DNA of 63,980 nt, filler included, from Reclinomonas americana ATCC 50394 (lineage: Eukaryota), in NCBI GenBank assembly GCA_048213135.1. It is 17 parts of 17 records of this genome, joined end to end, with 100 filler letters (N's around TTAATTAATTAA, not from the genome) between each part and the next. Parts side by side here need not be neighbours in the genome. Positions count along the whole stretch, not along the records: positions 27,123 to 32,460 come from AFZH01020327.1; 16 more parts are not named here. One strand, written 5' to 3'. Both the position numbers and the translations under genes were made by a program. Each line of letters starts with the position of its first letter. The stretch's first letter is position 1. The notes beneath the pieces are model-generated. The model saw only the letters and a list, made by a program, of their open reading frames with translations, did no database searches and was not told the origin of the DNA. Positions 10,546 through 54,517 of the stretch are shown piece by piece.

Positions 10546-13189
<2,644 letters not shown>

Positions 13190-14095
13190 TCGTTGGAGGG
13201 AGGGAGGGAGACGCGCGCTCACAGCTGGAAAGCTGCGCGATGATTGGAGAGGAGGACGAACACTGCTTGCAAGTTCGTTTTGCTTCCTTCTCTCAAGCGC
13301 GTGCTGTGACTGCTTGTGGTGTGCATCACTGCAGTGTGGTGATGGTGGTGCAGGCAGTGCTGTTGGACTTGTCGACGTTTCATTGTACTCGCGTGTTCGC
13401 CATCGATATCGCGAGAGTGGCACCATGGCGGGAATGCGATGCAGTGCCCAGGAGCAGGCCACGGCGAAGATGAGGCAGAGGTTGGAGTTGAGAAGGTGCT
13501 CCATCTGTTGGTGGGAGACGCGCGCTCACAGCTGGAAAGCTGCGCGATGATTGGAGGACGAACACTGCTTGCAAGTTGTTTTGCTTCTTTCTCTCAAGCG
13601 CGTGCTGTGAATGCTTGTGGTGTGCATCACTGCAGTGTGGTGATGGTGGTGCAGGCAGTGCTGTTGGACTTGTCGACGTTTCATTGTACTCGCGTGTTCG
13701 CCATCAATATCGCGAGAGAGGCACCATGGCGGGAATGCGATGCAGTGCCCAGGAACAGGCCACGGCGAAGATGAGGCAGAGGTTGGAGTTGAGAAGGTGC
13801 TCCATCTGTTGGTGAGGGAGGGAGGGAGAGACGCGCGCTCACAGCTGGAAAGCTGCGCGATTGGTGGAGGACGAACACCAGAACTGCTTGCAAGTTCGTT
13901 TTGCTTCCTTCACTCAAGCGCGTGCTGTGACTGCTTGTGGTGTGCATCACTGCAGTGTGGTGGTGTCTGTTGATGGTGGTGCAGGCAGTGCTGTTGGTGT
14001 TGCCGACGCGCACGATCATCGTCGATCGCGACGTCGACGTCGTTTTCTCGCATGCATTTGATTGGCACAGCTTGCGATGGAGAAGCGCACACAGA

Positions 14096-15308
14096 ATGGA
14101 TCAACCTGCAGTGGCGACGACTTTGACAGTTGCACTCTGTGTCGCTGATGCATGTGTGGTGCTCACAAAAACAAGTGCAGAACCATCGACTCGGTCCTTC
14201 GTTGTCAGGACTCCGACTCGCGACTGCCACCATGGGCCGCAGACGCACACTCCCTCGCCGGGGCTTCCTGTCCATCTTCGCGTGCAAGTACTTTCGCGGC
14301 AGCGCTGGCGTGAACTCCCTCACCGTCACTCCCGATGGTCTGCACATCGTGGGTGGGAACCACGAGAAAACGGTTCGAGTGTGGTCGCTGGCCAGTGGAG
14401 ACGAAGTGCGCGTATTCGAGGGACACGCTTCTGTGGTGCTGTCTGCCGCCGTGACTCCCGACGGGCAGCACATTGTCAGTGGCAGTCCCGACACAACAGT
14501 GCGGGTGTGGTCACTGACGAGTGGCGAGGAAGTGCGACAAGTTATTGTCGGACACACTGCACTATGCGTGGCCATTACTCCCGATGGACATCACGCTGTC
14601 AGTGCGGGTTACGACAAGACAGTGCGCGTGTGGTCGCTCGCCACTGGAGAGGAAGTGCGTCGGTTGGAGGGGCACGCAGAGGCGGTGAACTCAGTTGCCG
14701 TCACTCCCGATGGACATCACGTGGTGAGCGGGAGTGACGACAACACAGTGCGAGTGTGGTCACTTGCGAGTGGCGAGGAAGTGCGAAGGATGAATGGCCA
14801 CGCGCGTGCGGTGAACTCAGTTGCCGTCACTCCTGATGGTAATCACGTGGTGAGCGGCAGTGACGACCACTCGGTGCGAGTGTGGTCGCTGGCGAGTGGC
14901 GAAGAGCTTAAACGGATGCAGAAGTACGCTGCGAAGGTGCGGTCGATCGCCGCCACTCCCGACGGTCGGCACGTTGTGAGTGCGAGCGACCTTGAAATGA
15001 CAGTGCTAGTGTGGTCACTGGCGAGCGGTGAAGTAGTCCACCGACTTGAGGTATTTCATCTTGCCTCGGTGCAAGCTGTTGCCGTCTCTCCCGATGGTCA
15101 GCATATCGTGCTTGGGTGGAGCGATGGCATCGTACACGGCCAAGTGCGTCCAAACTGTCCGACGTTGGGAAGAGTTTCACCAACCGTTGGCCGACTGACT
15201 CCCGATTCCTGGGCGCCTCATGTCCTGTATAAGGCAGAAATCTCGGTAAATCGTCGGCAAATCTCACATAGACGTCGATACGACAGCGTTTGGCCAACAT
15301 TAGTTTAG
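14096..15308 (+). CDS. Stand-alone WD40 protein (7 repeats, same repeat family as the NACHT gene); last repeat interrupted
   Basis: Repeats of EGH..AVNSVAVTPDG.HVVSGS.D.TVRVWSLASGEEVRR from ~14300 to 15135. Probable small first exon 14096-14128. Unrelated sequence follows WSDGIV. Confidence 0.85.
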
Positions 15309-15414
15309 AACGTTNNNNNNNNNNNNNNNNNNNNNNNNNNNNNNNNNNNNNNNNNNNNTTAATTAATTAANNNNNNNNNNNNNNNNNNNNNNNNNNNNNN
15401 NNNNNNNNNNNNNN

Positions 15415-16250
15415 CTGCGACGACGGTTGGTCATTGGTGTGGCAAAATGTCGTGCGTGGTTGTTCGAGATGCTTCGTCAATTGCATGAACACAAAGCTGC
15501 GTGGCAGCAGGCGTGGCATTTGTGCGAGGAGTGGGAGAGGGATGGCAGTGGCGAGATGACTGTGCTGGATAAGACTGACGCCTTAAGGTGCTTGATGTGG
15601 TTTGCTTACCACTCATGCAGCTTGCCGCTGCTGGTACAGTGTCATGAGCGGCAGTGTGTGACACTGGGTGAGAGTCATCCAGACTCGCTGTGGACGCTGC
15701 TTTTGCAGGCCAGGCATCACTATAACCGGAAGCGGTTTGCTGAAGCTGAGACACTCTATCGACGGTGCTGGGAGATGCGACGACTGGTTCTTGGAGCTGA
15801 GCATCCGGTCACGTTGATATCCATGAATAATGTTGCCGCATGCATCCAAGATGACAGTCGTCTTGAGGAAAGAGTTCAGCTGATCCGAGAATGCTTGGAA
15901 GTAAGGCGAGCAACATTGGGAGTTCGGCATCTGAACACTCTTGCTTCGATGAACAATCTTGCTGTTTCTCTCGAGCAGCAAAACACACCAGAATCGCTGG
16001 CAGAAGCTGCTGATTTGTACCGTCAGTGCTTGGAGGGTCGACGTGAGCTGCTGGGCGACAGACATGTCCTCACGTTGCAGTCGATGTATAACTACGGCAT
16101 TATGCTCACGAAGCAGCAACGATGGGCCGAGGCAGAGGCACTGCTGGTGGAATGTGTGGATGGTCGGCGAGTGGTGCTTGGCGAAGAGAATCCGGAAACG
16201 GTGAATGCCATCAAGTGGTTGACAGAGTGCAGACGTCGTCGTGACCAAGC

Positions 16251-16266
<16 letters not shown>
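15415..16266 (+). CDS. 3' part of a TPR protein (kinesin-light-chain-like TPRs), paralog of the STAND gene at 40379-44100; 5' end lost in gap
   Basis: LGESHPDSL, LGAEHPVTLISMNNVA, LGVRHLNTLASMNNLA, LGDRHVLTLQSMYNYG, LGEENPETV. The first ~75 aa match the end of the 40331-41650 ORF. Confidence 0.9.
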
Positions 16267-16400
<134 letters not shown>

Positions 16401-18270
16401 CGTCAAAATCACTCCAGTAGCAACTACCGCATGATACCGCTGCCGCCTCACACCCCGTTCCCGTATGAAGATCGCAAAACTGCAAACTTTCTGACGTAAC
16501 GATGTGCAATCTGATACCTTGGTGTCAATTGGTTGTTCTCGGTGGAAATCAGTCGTGTACTGGAAGCTCAAGATTGGTGTCTGTGTTGATGTTTTGGATA
16601 CGGTTGAACTTGGTAATCAAGACAGCTGTTGCTTGTTTGTTGGTTAGTGAATTTGTTGTTGTGCTTGATGGAAGTGTTGAGCTGCGGAACACGAAGTCGA
16701 GGACAATCCATAACTGTAGTGTCCTCCTTCAGTTCCTTGCTTCTGTAGGCTTCCTCTCTTACGAGAGCAAGCCACCTGGTTGACACTTCCGTGGTGGCCC
16801 ACCCACCCACCCGAATGTGTGTATGTTGACGGATAGTCACTGTGGAACCGATTACCGCGATGCACAGAGTGCTGTTTTGTGATGGCGGGATTATCGTAGG
16901 CTTCATTGAGGAGGTGGCCTCGGACTTGGAGAGCACTACAGCAGGCGCGGTGTGCCAACGCCAATATCGGCGGGTATCGTTTGCTGCTGTGTAGTGTGTT
17001 GGAGATGGTGATGGGCGTGTGCAGCGGGTTGTGCAAGCGACTGGTGGTGGTGCGAGAATGATAGCACAAGTGGAACGAGTACGCTGCTGTACCCGTATGT
17101 GGCGTCCGAGGGCCAGCGTGTGTGCGGTGGATGCGTTGGCGTTATTAGCCGAGTGCCGAGTGCGGTCTAGAGACGGTTTATTGCGCCGTACTTGCGGGTC
17201 TGGAGTAGCCGGTTGCCAGGCGCAGCTCATTGATCAACTCCGGCCAGGACGGCTTTACCGTGGATCGGCACTGGCGGAACGAGAATCGGCGCACGAGGGC
17301 TTGATATCGGTGCGGTTGCGAGTGTGCTCCAGCGGCGAGCACTCGGGCGGGAGCCAGGATCGTGACCAGCGGGCCGCACACACGCTCGAGGGAGGGTTTT
17401 CGCTGGTCACATTGCTTGACCGGCCCCTCTTGAGGCCCGATCTGAGCGAAGGCATGTAAAATAAAGTCAAACTAGTCGGTTGTGGTTGGGGTGCATCGCT
17501 GTTTTGAGTTGTCGGTGTGGAATCGAGTAGAGAGTGCCACGTTAGTGACGGTGCTCTGGTGGTGGCAGTAGAGGACACTACATCAATTGGTTGTCGAGAC
17601 TGATAAGTGTGGAGCAAGCTCAAATACGGAACTCTCTCCAAACGTAGTCAGGAGAGTGCTTTTTGCATTCGGGCAGCACGCGGAAGTAGTGGTGAGGCGG
17701 CTTGCCAGAGTGGTGAAAGGTTTCGGAGAGCGAAGAATGAACCAGCTTGAGGGAGGACAAGTGCACTCCGCGAATCAGTGTTTCCAATCGCCAAGCGCTC
17801 GACCCTCGATCGCACCGTCTGCAAACCCACGATCGCTCCCATCACACTCCACGCACCATCGTCGACGTCTCCATGGCCAAAGAGCGATCGAATCGCGATT
17901 GCAGCGATCGCTTTTCACACGCACAATCGATTCCGTTTCCCACGATCACCGATCGCCAACGAACCACCCTTACTCCTGCATGCTCCTTTCATGCGTCACA
18001 AGTCGCGACAACTTCGCGGACTGCAAATTCGTCGAAATCGGACACATCGATCATTGCCGATTTCGTCACTCAACAGCCCGCAAAGAGAGCACACAACCTC
18101 ACACACCCACACAACTCTGCCTGTGACACACACACTCGTCTCCCTCTTTGCCTGTCACTCAACTCGATCAGTGAGCACCACAACTTCCGCGCGACTCTCT
18201 CTCTCTGTTTCAACCGCCACTCGTCATCATCAAACAGACTCTCTTTCCCCCTCTCCCTCTGACACACACA

Positions 18271-18944
18271 ATGGATCGTGAACTGCGAAAGCAAGAGGAG
18301 GAGACCTTCGAGAAGCCCAAGAGCGCTCTCAGGTGCGCGCGCGCCCGAAAAAAGACCTCACACAGACACGAATGTTCGCTTTCACACTCTGTCACTCACT
18401 CGCTGTCTCTCTGACACACACAGTGACGAGGACGATGAGCTGCGTCTCAAAGGCCGCGACCTGGCGCCCTCAAACAGCAACGGGTAAGCTCACGCGCGCA
18501 CACACAAGTTGTCACACACGTGCGCATATATAAACTGACGCGTGCCACTCACAGTCACTCAACAAGCAGTGTGACTACGACACCAACGCCCACTGCATCA
18601 GTGGCGCCTTCTCCGCCTGCTCCGCCTGTGCAGGCGACTGCTGCAGCTTCGGCATCGCCCAAGACGCGCAAGTCGACCACGCGGTGTAATCATTGCAACA
18701 AGAAGCTCGGCCTGCTGAACTTCACGTGCAAGGGATGCGAGGCGCTGCTGTGTGCCGGGTGCCGCTTGCCCGAGGATCACACGTGTGCGGCCGATGAGTC
18801 GTTCCGAGAGAAGGTCTCTTCTGATACTTTGTAATCGATTGCCCTTGCCGATTTATTGACTCTTTGCGGGATGTGCAGGCGCGTGCGCGGTTGGCGGAGA
18901 CGCTGGAGAAGGTGGCGCCGTCGAAGAAGCTCGAGTTTTTGTGA
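18271..18944 (+). CDS. AN1-type zinc finger protein, 4 exons
   Basis: RCNHCNKKLGLLNFTCKGCEALLCAGCRLPEDHTC followed by the spliced tail ARARLAETLEKVAPSKKLEFL*. Confidence 0.9.
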
Positions 18945-19259
18945 ACTTGTTGTTGTTGTCAGTTGTCTCCTCGGGTCTCTGTTTGTCTCTGTGTGTGTTT
19001 GTTGGCTTCGGCCGTCGCGTATTGTAGAAGTATAGTGTACAGCCACCTTGCTGCTTTGTGTGGGAGGAGAGAGCGAGACGTGTCGGAGCTGTTTGTCCGC
19101 ACCGGGTCCGCGTGGTTTTTTTCGGAGCTGTCGGGGAGTGGCGGATCTGGCGTGTGTGGTGCGGGTGACAGGTGGATTTGGCCAGAAGGTGGGGAGGGGT
19201 GCTTGCCATTTTCGAGGGCGGCGTGGCGATGCTGGATGTGGTAACCATGGTGACAGGAG

Positions 19260-19750
19260 GCAGAAGGGGGAATTGACTTCACAGCGGGCGACAGGCGACT
19301 TAGCAGTGTGCTTTGGTGGGCGGAGGCAGAAGGGCAGGAGTTCGACTTCACAGCGGGCGGCTGGCGCCTCTGCGGCGTTCTCTGCGACCTCACATTGAAG
19401 CGCCGGGGGCAGAAGGAGGAACTGGCGTCACACCAAGCGACTGGCGACTCAGAATATCGAAGCGAGCATTGCCGGGCCGGAATCGACGTTCCTCCTGGCG
19501 ACTGGCGCCTCAGCAGCGTTCTCTGCGACCTCACATCGAAGCGAGCGCCACCGAGCACAGAACGGCAGGAATCGACATCAGTATTGAGCGACTGGCGCCT
19601 CAGTAGCGTGCTCTGCGAACTCAAGTCGCCGGGAGAGACTGGAATCGACGACTTCCCGAGCGACTGGCGGCTCTGCGGCATTCTCTGCGTCCTCAGAGTG
19701 GGCAGCAATCGACATCTGAGCGACTGGCGCCTCAGCAGCATCAAGTCCCG
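19260..19750. repeat. Degenerate internal repeat array, possibly coding (QRTLLRRQS repeats on the minus strand)
   Basis: gcgactggcgcctcagcagcgttctctgcgacctca recurs about 6-7 times with variation. Confidence 0.6.
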
Positions 19751-21806
19751 AGAGCGAACGGAGACGCCTGGCGGTGCCGTCAAGGTCTGGTGGAGAATGG
19801 CAGTCCTTGACTTGCTCGCAGTGAGGCTTTCGGCCGGGATAAGGCGAGATAGCGAGCACTCGCCCCCGGTCGTCGCGCGCGCAGGCGGAAATGCTGCTGG
19901 CCCGGTGGCACTTGACGCGTTGCAGGAATTGTCGGGGGTCAAGGTTGGTCGCTTTGTTTGTTGTTGGGGATGGTTGCATGCAGCGAGCGACGTTGACAGG
20001 ATCCGATGGCGGATCCTTGCTTGCACGCAATCAGCAAGGTCTGTCGAAAAGCGCGCGCGTCTTGCTTGTTGCGCTTGAGCGCAGGATCCGGAGCAAGCGC
20101 GACGCCCGACTTCCTTGCATGGAGTCAGGTGTTGGTATGCAAGAGTGGACGCAGTGAGCGACAGAGAACAGGGCGAAAGAAACAGGCACACGAAGAAGTA
20201 CAGACTGACTTTGCGATATCGATATCTCTCGCGGTTCAAGGTTCTTCTCTTACTCTTTCTCGCGGTCACGGACTTAGACGTAGTAAGCTTGCAATAGTTG
20301 ACGCAGTGAGTGAAAGAAAGAAAGAGAGAGAGAGAGAGAGGCAGAGAAGTCGACGTCACGATTTGGATATCTCTTGCATGCACAGTTCAAGGCCTTCCCT
20401 CAACGCTCCCTCACACGATCACGGAGCCAGACGCTCGTTTGCGACGATGGACGCAGTGAGTGCGACAGAGAAGGAGGCCGAGAAGCGACACAAACCAGTC
20501 TCGGTAGCTATAGTGCGATAACAATATATATTAAANNNNNNNNNNNNNNNNNNNNNNNNNNNNNNNNNNNNNNNNNNNNTTAATTAATTAANNNNNNNNN
20601 NNNNNNNNNNNNNNNNNNNNNNNNNNNNNNNNNNNAAAGGGACGCTTCCACGTGCACCAGATTTTCGGTGAATTCAAGAAAATTCCTAGGTCACTTCCAC
20701 GCATCGCCGCGCGCCGCCGCTCTCTGGGGTATGACTGTACACGTACAAGAGGTGGTGGGCACACTTTTCGCGGCGTGTGGTGCAGTGGAAGGGCCCATGG
20801 CGCGTTTTGGTGGCAATTTCCACTCCATGTCGCCCACCACACGCCCCCCCCCCACCTCGAGTGTTTACATGCACGGTGCATTTGCACACCACCCTGCCGG
20901 AAGTGGCAATCCAAGTCTCCGTGACTAATCGAGGAAGCACGGCATTAGCGCCTCCCCGTGCTACCTAGAGTGGGCTTATCACTCGCAGCCAGTGCATTAG
21001 CCTGAACAAGAGTCGGTGCTGGTGACTAATGCCAGTGCTGCGATGCGCTGGGATTGAGATGCACAACTCCAGTCAACTGCAGCCGCGTCATTAGCCACTA
21101 GTCGGCGCGCACCCTCCAGCACACAATGCCAGTCACGGCATCAGCGCGTAGTCTTTAGCTACACGTCAATAGCAATGGTGTTAGTCGTGACTTGTCATCT
21201 GACCACAGTGAAAGTCTCTCTGTGGTGTGTGTTGTATGTGAGGGAGAGAGGGGGAGAGTGAGAGAGGAATGCAGTGTGTGTGTGTGTGTGCGAGAGAGAG
21301 AGAGAGAGCAGTGTGATTGATCGAATTTGCAATTGCACGTGCGTGCGCCACATTCCTCCTCTAGATCTCCTTCATTTCATCACGTCTTCCACCATGACTT
21401 GCACACTGGCAGTCAACGGCGACAGCTCGTGCCAAGCGTGCAGCGCGCGCCGGCGAGACAACTCATTGGCGGGAAAATTCAATTGCTTACGTCACACTTT
21501 TGCACATTCTCACGCGCACAGGTTAGTTGCTCGTTGCGCTGCGTGTCTTGCTTGCTGTGCAGCAATGGCTGTGCTGGTACCTGACACGCTCATGTCGACA
21601 GAGAGAGAGAGAACGTCCCGCGTGCAAGTTGGCGAGTGTTTGTGCTTGCGCGCGCGCAAACCGCACATGTCGCGCAGTCTCGCACACGCACCACGCACGC
21701 GCGCGTGCATTGGCCGATCGCGGCGATGGGTGCATGTGTTGTCGATTGCACGGTCATGCCATTGGAGCTGGTGCGCTTGCGCATGTGGTCTTGTTCACTC
21801 TCTCTT

Positions 21807-27022: not shown

Positions 27023-27169
27023 NNNNNNNNNNNNNNNNNNNNNNNNNNNNNNNNNNNNNNNNNNNNTTAATTAATTAANNNNNNNNNNNNNNNNNNNNNN
27101 NNNNNNNNNNNNNNNNNNNNNNGAGGAACAAAAAGGAATCGGTCTCTCTCTCTCTCTCACACACACTCA

Positions 27170-27204
<35 letters not shown>

Positions 27205-27460
27205 TCACTCTCTCCCCTGCGTCTCTCCTTGTCTCCCTGAGTCTTGCCCTCTCTCCCTATCTTTCTGTCCCTTTCTCTTTCTCCCTCACTCTGTGTTATC
27301 TTTCTCTCTCCCTGCCCCCCCCCCCCCACCCCTTTCTCTCTCTCTCCCTCGTTGCTGGCTCACTCACTGGCATCGCAGCGCCTTGGAGCGGGAAGCGCGG
27401 TTTGTTTGTCGGCAGTCTTTGCCCTGTACTCCGCCTCTCTCACTGTCGCTCTGCGCATAG

Positions 27461-30400
27461 CTTGATCAACTTCAATCGCATCAACATGGCCTTCGAGGTG
27501 GCGGAGGAGGCCGTGCGTCTCCGCTGTCAACGCGCACTGGCACAGTTCAGCCGTGATCATCCGGACTTTGATGTGCGGGCGTGGGTGCAGAGTTTTACAC
27601 CTGCCGGCATGGATGTGGCGACAGTGAAGGCGTGGCGAGAGCGTCATGCCCCACTTCTACCCAATTGGGTTGCGCTGTTCAAGGAGAAGCAGTCGGTGGT
27701 GTTGGCCTGGCGTGCTGCCTTTGACGCCGACCCCTCATCTGACCCCCCGTGTGACGGTTTCGACACGACGGCACTCTCCTCCATCATGTCATATGGTGGC
27801 TTTGTTCTGGAAGACGGTCGCAAGCTGCTGTTGATTGACGATGCAGATGAACGGAAAGCTGTGCAAGAGCTGCACAGTTTCAGAAACAAGCTAAGACATG
27901 ATGAGATGCCGTTCATAGACGCTACTGTGGAGCAGTTTCTGGGTGACGATGGCGTCTTCCTAACTACCCTCTCCCGACTGCAGTTGACTGCTGACGAGCG
28001 TGACCGATTCTGTGCTCGTATCTGCGAGGCACGTCACGCTCGACTCACCATGGACACATTCGAGGAGCGACTGCATCGACTGGCCGTGCGTGAGACGGCC
28101 TATTATCACGAAGATGACAGTGTGCGCAAGGACATGCAGATGTATGTGCCACTGCTGTGCTCTCGTGATCGTGACGTCTCGACGAGTGACAAGATGACAG
28201 ATCTGTTGACGGAGGTGGATGCTTTCCTCTCCGACACCAACACCACTCAACGTGTGCTGGTGCTGTTTGGTAACAGTGGCGCAGGCAAGACCACCACCAT
28301 GTCGGTACTGGCTGAGCGAGCATGGCGGCAATGGCAAACGAGGGAGAGTCGACAAGTGCCTGTGCGTGTGCCTCTTGGTGCTTTGCGCAATGCCGATGAG
28401 CGACTGTTGGAGGAGGCACTGGAGCGACTGTCGCCCGAGTTGGGATTCAGTGAGTCGGATGTGCGGCGATTAAAGGAGGAGCCACTGCTGTTGCTGCTTG
28501 ACGGGTACGACGAGTTGTACCGTGGTGTGAATCTGTTTGTCAAGAACCAGCTGGATGTGTGTCGCGAGGTGAAGGTAGTTATCACCTGTCGGAGCGATTA
28601 CGCACTGCCGGCACTGGGTGGTGTGACGCAGTATCGACGGTACTTTGCACCGGTGGATGCACGAGGACAGTTGTGCATGCAACAGCTGATGGAGCGACAC
28701 ATTGCTCCGTTCAACAAGGAGCAGATTGAGGAGTACTTTGAGCGGCTGGTGCGAGTGGGTGGTGATGATTGTGATGACGGTGAAGCGCGATGGTCGACTG
28801 CCGAGGAGTATATTCGTGCACTGGAGGGTGTATATGGACTGGATGCGCTGGTGTCGAATCCATTCATGCTGACCGTGGTGGCTCACGTGCTGCCGCAATT
28901 GGTGGCAAGTGCAGTGCAGCGACCGACTCAGCGCGATGTGTTTGACCGATTTATTCGACAGTGGATTGAGAGGGAGCAGGAGAGGCAGACTCGTCTCGGT
29001 GCAGAGCGTGTGCCGAGTGAGGAGACATGTTTGGCATTCTGTGAGGGACTGGCACGGTTGATGCATGAGAGGAATGTGGTGCGTGTGTCTGTGACGGAGA
29101 GTTGGTCAGGTGATGGTGGTGGGGAGGAGGATGACTTTGGTGGTGCGCCTACTGCGGCAGTGCAAGCGCGACCGTTTGAAAAGTTTCTCGGTCACAAGAA
29201 CCAGCATGTGCGAGTGTGCTGTCCGATTGTGCGACGGTATGGAACGACGCAGTGGGGATTCGTGCATCTGTCGTTGCTGGAGCACTGTGTGGCGCGGCAT
29301 GTGTTTGCGTGGGAGACGTGGGATGAGGAGAGGAGATTGACGATAGAAGATGTGCAACAGCATGTGTTGGCAGTGCGACTGCTGAATGATCGACCATCGT
29401 TGGTGGAGCAGATGGCCGAGGTGGTGCGCCGATCACCCAAGGTACAAGACAGACTGTGGGAGGTGATTGAGTTGTCACGGGAGGTGGATGAGGAGCGATT
29501 GGTGACGGCAGCAGCGAATGCGGCAACGGTGTTGTGTGTGGCAGAAGTGTCGTTTAGTGGACGAGATCTGTCGGGTGTGCGAGTGAGGGGTGCGGATTTG
29601 AGGGATGCGGTGATGCACCAGACGGTGTGGAGGGGTGCGGATTTGAGAGGGATGAATGTGTGCATGGCGTATGCGAGGGAGGTGGATTTCAGGGGGGCAG
29701 ATGTGACGGGTGTGAAGTGGCCGAGGATGCCCATAGTGGGTCACACGGATGGGGTGTATGCAGTAGCAGTGACACCAGATGGTCAGCACGTTGTGAGCGG
29801 GAGTGCGGATGGGACTGTTCGGGTGTGGTCGGTGGTAAGCGGCGAGGAGGTGCGCCGACTGTCAGGCCACACGGCTCGGGTGTGGGCAGTAGCTGTGACA
29901 CCCGACGGCCAGCACATTTTGAGTGGCAGTGAGGACAAGACTGTACGGGTGTGGTCTGTGGCAAGTGGCGAGGAGGTGCGCCGACCGGAAGGCCACATGA
30001 GTTGGGTGTTCGCAGTGGCATCGACACCCGATGGGCAGCACATTGTGAGTGGCAGTTGGGACAAGACTGTACGAGTGTGGTCACTGGCAAGTGGCGAAGA
30101 GGTGCGACGACTGGAAGGCCACACGAATGGGGTGTATGCAGTGGCAGTGACACCCGATGGCCAGCACATCGTGAGTGGCAGTTATGACAAGACTGTACGG
30201 ATGTGGTCACTGGCAAGTGGCGAGGAGGTACGACGATTGGATGGCCACACGAGTTTGGTGTATGCAGTGGCAGTCACAACCGACGGCCAGTACATTGTGA
30301 GTGGCAGTTGGGACAAGACTGTACGGGTGTGGTCGCCGGCTAGTGGCGAGGAGGTGCGACGGTTCGAGGGACACACTGACGACGTGTTCTCTGTCGTTGT

Positions 30401-31532
30401 CGCTCCCGATGGCCAGCATATTGTGAGTGGGAGCAAGGACAGCACCGTGCGTGTGTGGTCATTAGCGAGTGGGGAAGAAGTACGTCGATTGGTGGGACAC
30501 GGCAAAGCAGTGCTGACCGTCGCTTGCACTCCCGATGGCCAATTCATTGTCAGTGGGAGTGCAGACAAGACTGTGCGTATATGGTCTGTGGTGAACGTTG
30601 AGGCCGTGCGACGGTCGGAGGGGCACACCCGTGCGGTGCAGTGTTGCACAGTAACTCCCGATGGTCGGTGCATTGTGAGTGGCAGTCGTGACAAGACAGT
30701 GCGATCATGGTCCGTGGCGACTGGTGAGGAAGAGCGACGATTGTCGGGGCGAAGTCATGCGCTCTCTGTTGCCGTCATACATCAGCTTGTTGTGTTTGGG
30801 ACTTTGGGAAAGACAATTCCAGTTTGTTCACTTGCGAGTGGAGATGTAGTGCGACGACTGGAAGGACACACTGGCTTGGTGCAAACTGTCGCTGTCACAT
30901 CCGACTATCAGTACATTGTGAGCGGCAGTGCAGACTCAACCGTGCGAATATGGTCTGTGGCGAATGGAGAAGAAACGCGGCGATGTGAAGGACATACTGA
31001 GGAAGTCCTTTCTGTCGCCATTTCTCCTGATGGTCAGCACGTCGTGAGCGGCGGGGCCGACAAGACAGTGCGAGTGTGGTCATTTGTGAGTGGTGAAGAA
31101 GTGCGCCGGTTGGAAGGGCATATCGATGCAGTGCATTCTGTTACCGTCACTCCAGATGGCCAGCACATTGTCAGTGGAAGTGCCGACAACACCGTGCGTT
31201 TGTGGTCATTGACAACTGGCGATTTGGTGCGGCGATTTAATGCCCATATTGGACAAGTGTTTTCAGTTGCCATCACGCCCGATGGAGAGCACATTCTGAG
31301 CGCAGGCTGGGACAAGGTCGTGCGAGTGTGGTCCGTGGCGAGTGGCTTGGAGATTCAACGCTTTGAGGGACACAACGATCCGCTGTTATGTGTCGCCGTA
31401 ACTGCCGATGGGCAGCACGTTATCAGTGGAGGTGCTGACAGGTCGCTGCGTGTGTGGTCACGGGCTGGAATGCTTCAGCGAATTATTGGCTCATTCCTCC
31501 CCGACTTCACTGACGTCAAAAAAGATTCGTGA
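27461..31532 (+). CDS. NLR-like STAND protein: HEPN-like domain + NACHT + pentapeptide repeats + 14 WD40 repeats (single ~4.07 kb exon; first ATG 27486, small upstream exons possible)
   Basis: FDTTALSSIM...RKAVQELHSFRNKLRH (27882-27899). Walker A GNSGAGKT (28269-28292), Walker B LLLLLDGYDEL, VVITCR, SNPFML, WGFVHLSLLE. Pentapeptides after AAANAATVL: SFSGRDLSGVRVRGADLRDA. WD40 array ~29730-31470. Confidence 0.93.
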
Positions 31533-31775
31533 ATGAAATCGTTGCTCTGAAAAGATCTCATCTGCACTGGCTGCTTTTGGAACACTTGACCCTTGTTCCA
31601 GTCTTCTCGAATCAACAACTCAGGCACCTTGACAATACGTCCAAGACCTAGTTCTAGATGAGCTCCCAAGACTGTTTGCGGCATCAACAAGCCCACAGCT
31701 ATCTAGTCATTCTACGATTTCTGTGCAACTTCTTTCGTCCGCAAAGAAACTTACAACAAACCATTCCACATTCAT

Positions 31776-34067
31776 TCACGGTAATCTCCGCTTGCTGTGC
31801 TGCTCCAGCAGCGCCGTGCACCTCGCTCTCCTGTCCTCCGCCGACCACAGCTCCGGATACTGCCATCACCAACAGAGTCAGCAGAGACTTCAACGAACTC
31901 GTCAACAATAAACACACTAACCATCATCGCCAACTTGGTGACCTTCTCGGCATGTGTGGGAATGAAATTCCAGTGAATAATATACGTGAGCTGCAAGTTC
32001 TCCGTGAGCTGCAGGAGGTCGTTCTGGTGCCTGAATGCAAAGTGGCCTGCGAGGGGCACAGCGACAGTGCGGTTAGTCGAGGGTCACGGAATTCTATCAA
32101 TCGATAGCTCGACCCACTCTCTCTCCCATCCATGCCTCAAAAAGAAAGATGCCCGCATTCCCAACCTCTATGATAGAACCGACAAGCAACCCTCAGCACA
32201 ACCTTGCCTCACTCAGTCACTCCAAGCTTCAAAAGAAAGTGGCATGGACAAACGTCCTACTCTCAATCAACGTATAGAAGAAAGAGACGCTCACTGTCCA
32301 CGTGAGAAGTTATATATGACTCGCATCCCTTATCATTCTCGTGTGTCACTCGTCGACGTACAAGTCGCTCAACATCACACCTCGTCATCAACACTGCACA
32401 GCCCCACAAACAACAGAGAGGAAAAGCAACCGCGTCAGCAGACATGGAAGGGTACAACCANNNNNNNNNNNNNNNNNNNNNNNNNNNNNNNNNNNNNNNN
32501 NNNNTTAATTAATTAANNNNNNNNNNNNNNNNNNNNNNNNNNNNNNNNNNNNNNNNNNNNTTCCCCCTGTCCATCCCTCCCCTTCCCCTCGCCCCTTCCC
32601 CTGTCCCTCCCCCTCCTTCCCCTCGCCCCTCCCTTCCCCCTCCCTCCCCTTCCCCTCCCCCCTTCCCCCTGTTACCCCCCCCCCCCTCCCTTCCTCACCA
32701 CTCGGAAACTGCAACGGATGCAACGTGCACACCCGCACCGACTTCTTGCCACCCGTTCCCACCGCCACCGGCGCCTCCATGTACCTCGCCCGCATGTGCG
32801 CCTCATTCCACCCCCCATCCAGCTCCGCAAACCGCGCCGACCCACTAAACACCCCCTTTTCCCGCAGCACCGCCTGCAGCGTCACCTGATCGTTGTCGCC
32901 GGAGGTAAGGTTGATCTGCAGCCACCGATCGTAGAGCGCCACCGTGCGCGGACTGGCCGTCACAAAGTAGATGCCGGCGTTGTACATGCCCGGCGCCTGC
33001 CGCACGTACTTGTCGAGGTCGGTGCGCTTGCCGGTGTTGTACTCGTCGTCAATGGCAAACGTCACGTCGCACTGAGCGAGGTCGGGGAAGGCGAGCAGCG
33101 GGCGCAGCAGCGACGTGTCGGCGTCCGCGTGGAAAATGGCGAATCCGCGATACAGAATGTGCCGCATGAGAATGTCGCGCTTCTTCAGCATCTCGCGATA
33201 CAGCGCCGAGTTGAAGCGCTGCGGCTGATTATCCAGCGCGAAGAACGACGGCGAGAAGAACACCGCCGCCTGCCCCCGCGACGCAAAGCTCTCCGTCAAG
33301 TGCGCCGTCAGCGCCTGCGTCCATGACAGGATCAGAATGCCGCCAAAGCCCGGCGCCGCCGGCACCGCCGGCAGCAACCCGAAATCGAGAGCATTGCAGA
33401 GCCAGTTGTCGAGAAAGTCGTTGAAGCCGCCCGACGCCTCCGTCACCACCAGCACCGAGTTGCGCGGGAACTGCAGCAGCACGCGATCCAGCGCCTCCGC
33501 CACCTCCCGCTTCATGTACTGCGAGTCCTCGGCCGGTGGATCAAACGGAGTCGGGTCAATGTCGCCTGTGGGCACCGGCAACGCGATGGGCTCCTCTGTG
33601 GGTGGCGGAGGATCGACAACAGGCGGCGATTCCTCCACAGTTGTCGCCTTGTCCTCCTCCTTGTCTTGTGGCGGTTGCTCCACCACTGGTTCCTCCTTTG
33701 CAGGTGGGGGCGGTGGAGGTGGAGGAGGTGTCTCCACAGGCACCTCCTCCTCCTCCGTCACAGTAGTCGCGTTCTTGTCTGACTCCTCCGCGACCTCCAG
33801 CAGCGATTGGGGGACTTCGGCATCGGCCGCTGCATCGACGCGATCGAGTGCGGCGACCCACTCTTCCCGCGCACGATCCCTCTGCTTGGTGAGTTGTGCG
33901 GCGAGATTCGCTGCCACATGTGCCACGTGCGACTCGGTGCTCTGCATCTGTCGCGTGATCAGAATGTGCACCGCCAGCATGAGGGTGGCGGTGAGCGCCA
34001 GTAGTAGAGGCATGGAGCAGCGGCGGAAGGGCCGTAGTGCCTCTGAGGTGGGAGTGGTGAGACTCAT
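31776..34067 (-). CDS. Nucleotide-diphospho-sugar transferase (GT77-like), type II membrane protein; spans the 32461 gap
   Basis: TM helix and Pro/Glu stem, then FHADADT (DxD), YNAGIYF, NDQVTLQ, LHPLQFPSG. A phase-1 join continues into HFAF...IIHWNFIPTHAEKV (31922-32046) and the last exon YPELW...* (31776-31859). Confidence 0.88.
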
Positions 34068-45811: not shown

Positions 45812-46747
45812 TCAGTGGCCCGAAGAAGCTGGCGCAGAGGCAAAGTAGCCACCACGCTCGATGTCGTCCAGCAGGTTGGCCTCCTTGGGGGCCCACCCAA
45901 GCAGCTCTCGCGTCTTTTGGGACGAGGTGGGGTTGTCGATTCCCGCAAAGCCGGCAAACCATCCAAAGTGCTCCTTGGCCTCCTCGCCGGCGGCCTTGCT
46001 CACCGCGGGCACATTCAGCTGGCGGCCAATCAGTTCGGCAATGTCGCGCAGCGGGACGCCTTCCTCCGCCACTGCATGATACACAGCTCCGGGAATGGCA
46101 CGCTCCAGCGCCAAAAGATACACTCGCGCCGCATCCAGCCGATGCACGGCCGGCCACCGATTCTGGCCATCACCAATGTAGGCCGACTGGCCCTTCTGCC
46201 GGGCCAGCTGAATCAGCATGGGTACAAAGGCCACGTCACCACCATCGCCCTGGTGCACCGTTGGCGGCAGCCGCACAATGGACACGTTGGCGCCGCCGAA
46301 TTCGGCCGCGCACCGCCGAGCCGTTTGCTCCGACACGCGAGGGCCCGTGGCCGGCTCCGGCGCCGCCACGTCCTCCGTCGAGGTCTCACCCGGTGCAAGT
46401 CGGCTGAGCACCGACGGTGTGGCCGAGGTGACAATCAACGGTTGCTGCGGCTTGAGTGCACCAGCCAGAGCCTCAATGGCGCGGCGGTCAACGTCGCAGC
46501 TTTCGGCGTACTTTTCAAAGTTGTGGATGAAACCCGTGTGGATGACGGCATCGGCGGCGGTCACTCCGCTGCGGAGCGATTCAAGGTCCTCCAGGGAGCC
46601 CAGGTGCACGCTGGCCCCGGCCGAACGCAAGGTGGCGGCGGCGGACTCAGAGCGCGCCAGGCCGAGGACGGAGTGCCCGGCAGACAGAAGCTCGCGGAGG
46701 ACTGCACTGCCAACAAAGCCAGTGGCGCCGGTGAGGAAGACCTTCAT
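45812..46747 (-). CDS. NAD(P)-dependent epimerase/dehydratase (atypical SDR), intronless
   Basis: MKVFLTGATGFVGSAVLRELLSAGHSVLGLARS, VIHTGFIHNF, IVRLPPTVH, YIGDGQNRWPAVHRLDAARVYLLALE, TRELLGWAP. Confidence 0.93.
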   Translation of the reverse strand: MKVFLTGATGFVGSAVLRELLSAGHSVLGLARSESAAATLRSAGASVHLGSLEDLESLRSGVTAADAVIHTGFIHNFEKYAESCDVDRRAIEALAGALKPQQPLIVTSATPSVLSRLAPGETSTEDVAAPEPATGPRVSEQTARRCAAEFGGANVSIVRLPPTVHQGDGGDVAFVPMLIQLARQKGQSAYIGDGQNRWPAVHRLDAARVYLLALERAIPGAVYHAVAEEGVPLRDIAELIGRQLNVPAVSKAAGEEAKEHFGWFAGFAGIDNPTSSQKTRELLGWAPKEANLLDDIERGGYFASAPASSGH

Positions 46748-47149
46748 CTTGATAAGCAAGCTCTCGCTCAAGACAACGAATCGAAGAACGAATGTGGTCG
46801 TCGTGTCATGCATGTCCGACATTTGTCCGCAGCGCTGGAGACGTCGGAGTGGAGTCCTGACCCCCCGGATCGGAGTGGTTGCTCCTGCAGCAAGCAAGGA
46901 TTTCGGGCTGCATTGCACAGACGACGGAGAAGGTCGACTCGGAGAGGGTCGGAAGTTTGCTTCTTTGTAAGAGGTCCAGCACTCTCCCTTCGTCGCTTTT
47001 TCTCTCTCTCTTGCACACAATCACGCAGTGGAGAATGACACTGATCCGAGAACACACAACCTCAATTCTGCTCACAGCAGCAGCAACAGATCTTGTTGCC
47101 AACCAAACGAATGAACCAATGAAGTCCTATCAAGCCTCTCTCCCTTCTC

Positions 47150-54517
<7,368 letters not shown>

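Follow-up and report, generated by a model that had tools for sequence, protein, structure and literature searches.

Which effector does an NLR-like receptor of Reclinomonas americana ATCC 50394 (assembly GCA_048213135.1) carry in front of its NACHT NTPase? The gene lies in a window of 63,980 nucleotides (nt), the whole stretch of DNA that was analysed, and a preliminary description had assigned to it an N-terminal HEPN ribonuclease (RNase) domain followed by NACHT, pentapeptide repeats and 14 WD40 repeats. The reading frame runs from the ATG at 27486 to the end of the stop codon at 31532 on the plus strand and encodes 1,348 amino acids (aa) in the standard code; among the 21 open reading frames (ORFs) of at least 250 aa listed for the window, counted from ATG starts, it is the longest. 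Residues are numbered from this ATG, which places AVRLR at aa 9-13, CDGFDTTALSSIM at aa 89-101 and RKAVQELHSFRNKLRH at aa 123-138. Our data point to a real NLR-like gene whose orphan N-terminus is probably, not demonstrably, a divergent HEPN RNase. We assign a probability of about 0.65 to the reading that its N-terminal ~170 residues form a very divergent HEPN-like domain of the Swt1/DZIP3 kind, with the Rx4H site (R133, N134 and H138) intact.

The receptor chassis was analysed with Pfam. The NACHT module (PF05729) scores 41.5 bits (E 1.6e-10, cut-off 26.7) over aa 256-421, and both its Walker A (GNSGAGKT, aa 262) and Walker B (LLLLDGYDE, aa 335) motifs are intact. A pentapeptide segment (PF00805, aa 687-722) scores 27.1 bits against a cut-off of 20.2, and its comparison with PDB chains yields pentapeptide and beta-solenoid matches at E 3.7e-7 to 9e-3. 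WD40 (PF00400) is found in 13 stretches with an E-value of 1.6e-146; counting by hand gave 14 units of 42 aa between aa 741 and 1325, the ninth of which (aa 1077-1115) is degenerate. With all three modules above their Pfam cut-offs and the Walker motifs present, the tripartite architecture of the preliminary description holds. The sequence thus fully supports a predicted STAND/NLR-type receptor, with a variable N-terminus, a central NTPase and a C-terminal repeat sensor.

The 13 intact WD40 units have a mean identity of 61%, positions 15, 16 and 18 being the most variable, and at the DNA level they show a 126-nt period with 80-84% matches. The variable positions resemble what may be a ligand-binding surface. 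Such a combination of NACHT and highly similar 42-aa WD40 repeats with few hypervariable positions is shared with the fungal HNWD/HET-E NLRs, in which the WD40 repeats are hypervariable. The R. americana protein differs from them in its N-terminus, for which Pfam scans returned no HET domain. A second WD40 array, a paralogue sharing 49-61% identity with the repeats of the gene by tblastn, is found at 14244-15227 on the plus strand (contig 12686-15314); it is preceded by repetitive sequence, has no NACHT on its contig and probably represents part of a further receptor belonging to this family.

A search with aa 200-700 retrieved 18 homologous proteins (E 1.4e-42 to 1.7e-11, 23-30% identity), 17 of which cover 90-98% of the segment and the remaining one 52%. 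Those with a name come from Mortierellaceae fungi and from their Mycoavidus/Glomeribacter endobacteria. According to their precomputed Pfam lists, NACHT occurs in at least 17 of the 18, pentapeptide repeats in at least 14 and WD40-type families in all, so that NTPase, helical region, pentapeptide segment and WD40 array form a chassis common to these proteins and to the query. Their N-termini, in contrast, carry ARM_5 in at least 6 of the 11 proteins scanned (best 25 families per protein) or are short, with about 65 residues before Walker A in six other homologues; none of them is similar to the query N-terminus. In a maximum-likelihood phylogeny covering 19 NACHT modules, the query occupies a long branch (1.6) that falls outside the clade of fungal and endobacterial sequences (support 95/94), within an unresolved comb that it shares with unnamed sequences.

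The case for a HEPN domain starts from the hexapeptide RNKLRH at aa 133-138, which is an Rx4H motif whose Arg is followed by Asn. It agrees with the HEPN signature, Rx4-6H with a polar residue (N, D or H) after the Arg, and the R-N-x3-H motif named in the preliminary description is intact. As far as the available text of two papers goes, Rx4H with Asn after the Arg is the commonest active HEPN form (Anantharaman et al. 2013, PMC3710099; Takeuchi et al. 2022, PMC9646362). The strict pattern RN...H occurs six times in a background of 141,160 aa made of six-frame window ORFs and fetched proteins, which amounts to 0.011 per 255 aa, against 0.24 for the loose pattern R[NDH]x3-5H. The strict motif is uncommon and by itself not decisive. 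The region preceding NACHT, some 255 residues long and not about 200 as previously estimated, is predicted to be all-helical. HEPN motifs are described as lying where core helix 3 ends on its C-terminal side and the next loop starts (PMC3710099, available part), and here the motif falls at the end of a predicted helix, assigned to aa 122-135 by DSSP in an unseeded AlphaFold2 model with a mean predicted local distance difference test (pLDDT) of 38 and to aa 120-137 in a seeded, hence circular, model.

Three methods led to the same pair of families. Among 13 sub-fragments of the N-terminus submitted to Pfam, seven matched HEPN_Swt1 (PF18731) below threshold, with E 0.064-0.13 and 12.9-14.0 bits, and always by aligning aa ~121-150 with profile positions 74-102; otherwise only DUF1707 (6 of 13) and DUF6270 (1 of 13) were returned. 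A protein-language-model atlas placed the HEPN_DZIP3 and HEPN_Swt1 clusters on top, both for aa 1-250 (0.80/0.80) and for aa 84-215 (0.78, 0.77 and 0.76), the best named matches belonging to one family or clan in 10 of 10 and 9 of 10 cases, respectively. By the tool's own statement, atlas scores below 0.9 are leads only, and one third of shuffled proteins reach 0.8. Finally, we built a custom hidden Markov model (HMM) from the HEPN_Swt1 domains of 401 bacterial genomes (13 matched, 12 above the cut-off, 12 aligned). HEPN_DZIP3 was found in none of these 401 genomes, and the control genomes were likewise silent. The custom HMM scored the N-terminus at 5.1 bits (E 9e-4, one target), aligning its FD..L helix with the bacterial hD..xL helix and RNKLRH with RNRWAH.

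The custom-profile score was compared with several controls. It was reached by 3 of 2,000 full shuffles and by 23 of 2,000 shuffles in which the motif was held in place. By segment, aa 89-138 hold all of the signal, and none of 2,000 shuffles equalled their score. When the motif was fixed in this core, 1 of 5,000 shuffles did so, and when the motif columns were taken out, 48 of 5,000; natural 44-aa windows did so in 4 of 5,000 cases with the motif and in 79 of 5,000 with its columns removed. The 44 residues before the motif thus beat 98.4-99% of controls on their own. In Smith-Waterman comparisons, two of the 12 bacterial domains stood out, with z-scores of 4.4 (L025; 4 of 1,000 shuffles) and 3.7, the best pair being of the DUF499-fused type. 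Unguided MAFFT aligned the query along the whole bacterial domain, with H138 falling into an invariant column and R133 into one that is conserved to at least 90%, and it matched three elements to the DUF499-fused bacterial type, namely the FD..L helix, ERxxVxELxxxRNxxxH and F..DD...L..L.RL. D93 was placed against the Asp of the bacterial hD..xL helix by HMMER, hhalign and MAFFT, all from the one query sequence, and would represent the acidic residue expected in HEPN helix 2. The residue before H138 is Arg, in place of the nearly invariant Ala of the bacterial set. Taken together, the strict motif, the convergence of three methods on one family pair, the similarity that the 44 residues before the motif show independently of it, and the effector position before NACHT favour a divergent HEPN-like domain over any other single reading of this region.

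A number of results weigh against this reading. All sub-fragment matches miss the HEPN_Swt1 gathering score of 27.5 bits, and HEPN_DZIP3 (PF18738, gathering score 27 bits) was not reported at E <= 10 in 15 Pfam queries, in which matches weaker than about E 0.1 are suppressed by the HMMER filters. Since both thresholds are missed, we do not file the N-terminus in either family; no HEPN match was obtained either when the whole 255- or 165-aa N-terminus was submitted to Pfam. As it was the motif that drew attention to the region in the first place, independent evidence comes only from the tests that leave the motif out (p ~0.01-0.016). The custom profile gives no signal on aa 1-88 and 139-200, where 995 and 655 of 2,000 shuffles equal the score. 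In a natural background of 849 sequences, it comes third of 671 domains when the N-terminus is scored with the full HMM and sixth with the core HMM, which is not database-significant, and two spurious background ORFs score the same or higher. The hhalign probability for the single sequence against the 12-domain alignment is 2.3% (P 0.021), the BLASTP E-value with the best bacterial domain is 0.12, and 8 of the 12 bacterial domains are unremarkable by Smith-Waterman, their scores being equalled by at least 43 of 1,000 shuffles.

Searches for homologues of the N-terminus add to these points. With aa 1-250, a word-indexed homologue search scored 2,256 candidates and kept none, and exhaustive phmmer against 1.84 billion cluster representatives found a single match, a spurious simple-repeat protein (P0002). 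Pattern matches in prokaryotic genome contigs (35) and in metagenome contigs (106) yielded no confirmed relative, and within the window tblastn returned the self match alone below E 2. The databases searched thus yielded no homologue in which R133 and H138 could be compared. NCBIfam returned no family for the N-terminus, PDB sequences nothing below E 1.4, and PADLOC P-loop-level matches only.

Structure prediction, in which the four-helix up-and-down core of the HEPN superfamily was looked for, lent the reading no support either. Unseeded AlphaFold2, run without an alignment, gave an all-helical and unusable model (pLDDT 38.4); its VIA-align fold search listed no HEPN protein among 50 entries, only the helical hairpin aa 190-250 being matched, a result that the pLDDT of 38 makes meaningless. 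Seeding with the 12 bacterial HEPN domains raised the pLDDT to 71.1, with a predicted template modelling score (pTM) of 0.66. This seeded model is circular, because HEPN sequences were in its input, and Foldseek found no PDB match to it at E <= 0.001, the best being 0.48. Below threshold, the entries listed included 2hsb, yeast Swt1 (4pqz) and 1wwp, at 4.1 each, and MtlR (6kcr and 3brj), SO_3166 (5yep), RnlA (6y2r) and LsoA (5hy3 and 8xdj). Several of these we take to be HEPN proteins, partly from the 2013 survey; as the unseeded list contains none in 50, the enrichment reflects the seed. The HEPN domain claimed in the preliminary description is partly supported, by the sub-threshold Swt1 matches, the atlas ranking and the custom profile (p ~1e-3 on aa 89-138), and it found no support in Foldseek, in hhalign, in the flanks or in the background ranking.

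The main rival explanation is that the 255 residues at the N-terminus form a new helical effector or adaptor domain, restricted to this lineage and unrelated to HEPN, in which RNKLRH and the FD..L helix would be a chance coincidence; the protein would then still be an NLR-like receptor, with an output such as membrane disruption, adaptor recruitment or another enzymatic activity. We regard this as unlikely, though less so than the other rivals. It would account for the lack of a significant family match in Pfam, NCBIfam, PADLOC and PDB sequences, the empty search of 1.84 billion representatives, the low hhalign probability, the silent flanks, the spurious ORFs that score as high, and the atlas scores that a third of shuffles attain; NLR N-termini are, moreover, notoriously variable, as the ARM_5 domains of the closest NACHT relatives illustrate. 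It is harder to reconcile with the choice of one family pair, among thousands, by the Pfam HMM, the language-model features and the custom HMM, with the rarity of the strict motif in 255 residues, and with the similarity that persists upstream once the motif columns are removed. A HEPN fold could also have been kept for RNA binding, sensing or regulation and not as a killing enzyme. In the available parts of the respective papers, eukaryotic Swt1 HEPN is inferred to be possibly inactive and RNA-sensing (Anantharaman et al., PMC3710099), and HEPN-NLRs are suggested as cytoplasmic RNA sensors (PMC8662601); the Arg before H138, where the bacterial set has a nearly invariant Ala, would fit such a loss. 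However, R, N and H are all intact, a state that PMC3710099, as far as its available text goes, takes as predicting activity, and the WD40 array already supplies a sensor; we hold this possibility to be quite improbable.

Least probable of all, in our estimate, is that the gene model is incomplete or non-functional, owing to an upstream exon, a 5' truncation or decay of the copy, and that the true N-terminus lies elsewhere. The gene is alone on its contig, 27123-32460 (AFZH01020327.1), which is just 5,338 nt long. No in-frame stop was found between 27123 and the ATG, so that the frame is open to the 5' end of the contig; one WD40 repeat is degenerate, and elsewhere in the window there are contigs with apparent introns or with fragments, among them an SNF2 domain truncated where an ORF ends and the WD40-only paralogue. 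On the other hand, the 4,047-nt frame is uninterrupted, its codon-position GC pattern is uniform, that of the first 600 nt being the same as in the remaining ORF, and the Walker motifs are intact. The 363 nt upstream of the ATG are microsatellite-like, with a low-complexity translation: they are 72% C+T, with 0, 2 and 1 stops in the three frames, and they include a (TC)23 microsatellite at 27143-27188 and an extended pyrimidine tract, with poly-C in it, directly 5' of the start codon (region 27143-27258). They are probably 5' untranslated or intergenic sequence. With so few stops in any frame, the open upstream frame is no evidence of coding, and as this frame reaches the contig edge, the ATG at 27486 is a putative start. 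The start at 27461 given in the preliminary description is one base off frame and lies 5' of the first ATG. All the peptides quoted there are found in the translation of 27402-31532; one of them, INFNRIN, lies upstream of the first in-frame ATG and is for this reason probably untranslated.

Assuming that the divergent HEPN-like domain is an active RNase, a mechanism of oligomerisation-triggered RNA cleavage can be proposed, purely by analogy with known systems. Ligand binding by the WD40 propellers would relieve autoinhibition, and the NACHT module would then oligomerise in an NTP-dependent manner, gathering the N-terminal domains. Adjacent HEPN domains would build a composite, metal-independent RNase site, and RNA cleavage would lead to growth arrest, cell death or loss of invader RNA. 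The KEN and CRISPR HEPN enzymes offer an analogy for such an activation. They differ in their activating modules, which are kinase and ankyrin modules in RNase L and Ire1 (KEN), CARF in Csm6 and CRISPR RNA in Cas13. We consider the odds for and against this mechanism as a whole to be about even.

The design of an N-terminal HEPN followed by NACHT is not new, as it has already been described computationally in invertebrates and bacteria. In the available parts of the literature, animal lineages have DZIP3-type HEPN in fusions with NACHT and further modules, expanded in Nematostella, oyster and Capsaspora, and N-terminal HEPN is fused to STAND in bacteria (PMC3710099); more than 50 NACHT proteins with an N-terminal DZIP3-like HEPN are reported in the pearl oyster, and NACHT proteins may bear C-terminal TPR or WD40 repeats (PMC9646362); TIAMMAt detected HEPN-NLRs in nine invertebrate taxa (PMC8662601); and HEPN is among the effectors of bacterial NACHT proteins (bioRxiv 10.1101/2022.07.19.500537). 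HEPN domains also occur in further metazoan and bacterial conflict proteins (Kaur et al. 2021). By contrast, the main text of a survey of fungal NLR effectors (PMC9815663) never mentions HEPN, RNase or ribonuclease, and in the library searched we found no paper that combines NACHT, WD40, protists and HEPN, a weak negative.

Like the DZIP3/hRUL138-like HEPN-NLRs of invertebrates, for example those of the pearl oyster, the R. americana protein combines an N-terminal Rx4H of HEPN type with Asn after the Arg, NACHT and C-terminal repeats, which are LRR, TPR or WD40 in the former (PMC9646362, PMC8662601 and PMC3710099, available parts); in both, the immune role is presumed from computation alone. 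It differs by its orphan N-terminus, which has a sub-threshold HEPN_Swt1 match and no Pfam HEPN_DZIP3 match, by the pentapeptide segment before WD40, and by its non-animal eukaryotic source. With the bacterial Swt1-family HEPN-NTPase fusions (Ava_2192/DUF499 type and SNF2 type; PMC3710099 Table 1, as far as available), it shares the placement of a HEPN domain, here a candidate one, at the N-terminal end of a large NTPase and a core made of the hD..xL helix, an insert and ...ELxxxRNxxxH. The partner NTPase there is a helicase or AAA+ protein, not NACHT, and the similarity, at p ~1e-3, extends over only ~50 residues. Five large bacterial ORFs were fetched, and in all four that were scanned (1,050-1,223 aa) a Swt1-type HEPN precedes the NTPase, SNF2 in three cases and DUF499 in one. 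These loci (L039, L040, L042 and L043, from genomes G082, G099, G175 and G078) have the architectures tabulated in the available part of PMC3710099.

Oysters, cnidarians and bacteria have each been credited with dozens of HEPN-NACHT receptors, and in the available parts of those reports their function is just predicted. A true HEPN RNase in R. americana would extend the design to a non-animal eukaryote and add a very divergent HEPN branch overlooked by present profiles. Its compact single-exon gene would also be a tractable object for a first test of whether NACHT oligomerisation switches on a HEPN RNase. If the domain is not HEPN, the protein would display a new orphan effector on a chassis known, among named homologues, from Mortierellaceae fungi and endobacteria, that is, ordinary NLR domain shuffling. 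We also propose, as a tentative view held at somewhat less than even odds, that the domain founds an orphan branch of active Swt1/DZIP3-like HEPN RNases heading a NACHT-pentapeptide-WD40 receptor in an intron-bearing microbial eukaryote, in which case RNase-armed NLRs would have been assembled independently outside animals and bacteria.

Table 1. Position of the receptor gene, its predicted domains and its upstream region in the window.
Feature	Position	Strand	Basis and remarks
Upstream region, 363 nt	27123-27485	+	Pyrimidine-rich, low complexity, (TC)n, (CA)n, poly-C; open and in frame with the coding sequence
Coding sequence, 1,348 aa and stop	27486-31532	+	First in-frame ATG
Candidate HEPN-like helical domain, aa 1-170	27486-27995	+	Predicted helices; MAFFT with 12 bacterial HEPN_Swt1 domains
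Similarity core, aa 89-138: FDTTALSSIM helix, insert, helix ending in RNKLRH	27750-27899	+	Pfam HEPN_Swt1 13-14 bits; custom profile
RNKLRH, aa 133-138, putative RNase active site	27882-27899	+	Rx4H with Asn after Arg
Helical linker, aa 171-255, from candidate effector to NACHT	27996-28250	+	Long predicted helices
NACHT NTPase, aa 256-421	28251-28748	+	PF05729; Walker A 28269-28292, Walker B 28488-28514
Post-NACHT helical region, aa 422-686	28749-29543	+	Common to homologues
Pentapeptide-repeat segment, aa 687-740	29544-29705	+	PF00805
14 WD40 repeats of 42 aa, aa 741-1325	29706-31460	+	Enough for two seven-bladed propellers; repeat 9 degenerate

The positions of the gene and of its domains are collected in Table 1. 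The linker between the candidate effector and NACHT has a sole, weak match in Pfam, to DUF1707 (E 0.08-2.3). The window itself is composed of 17 contigs of 1.2-8.6 kb, the ends of which are microsatellites (TC, GT, TAG and CCCT), and of 16 spacers of the form N44-TTAATTAATTAA-N44, for example at 27023-27122 and 32461-32560. Because these contigs are unlinked and merely joined by spacers, the window holds no synteny or gene-neighbourhood information. An Rfam scan of it returned no match, and 66 further ORFs scanned contained only TPR, HEAT/Arm, a glycosyltransferase and an SNF2 fragment. The sparse ORFs, the microsatellites and the divided SNF2 domain indicate eukaryotic DNA.

Three of the other ORFs deserve a comment. 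ORF 15415-16263 (plus strand), at the start of contig 15415-20535, encodes TPR_10/TPR_12 repeats (E 1.4e-33), of a type that NB-ARC/NACHT-TPR STAND proteins commonly carry; the ORF is truncated at the contig edge, so that any NTPase part is missing. ORF 49240-49752 (plus strand) ends within an SNF2-related domain, its last residues matching profile positions 25-72 of 290, which suggests that an exon ends there and hence that the genes of this organism have introns. An SDR/NAD-dependent epimerase is encoded by ORF 45812-46819 on the minus strand. Its best 120 listed relatives are 57-63% identical, and the few with a name are Rhizobiales, which points to gene transfer or to a bacterial-like contig in the assembly.

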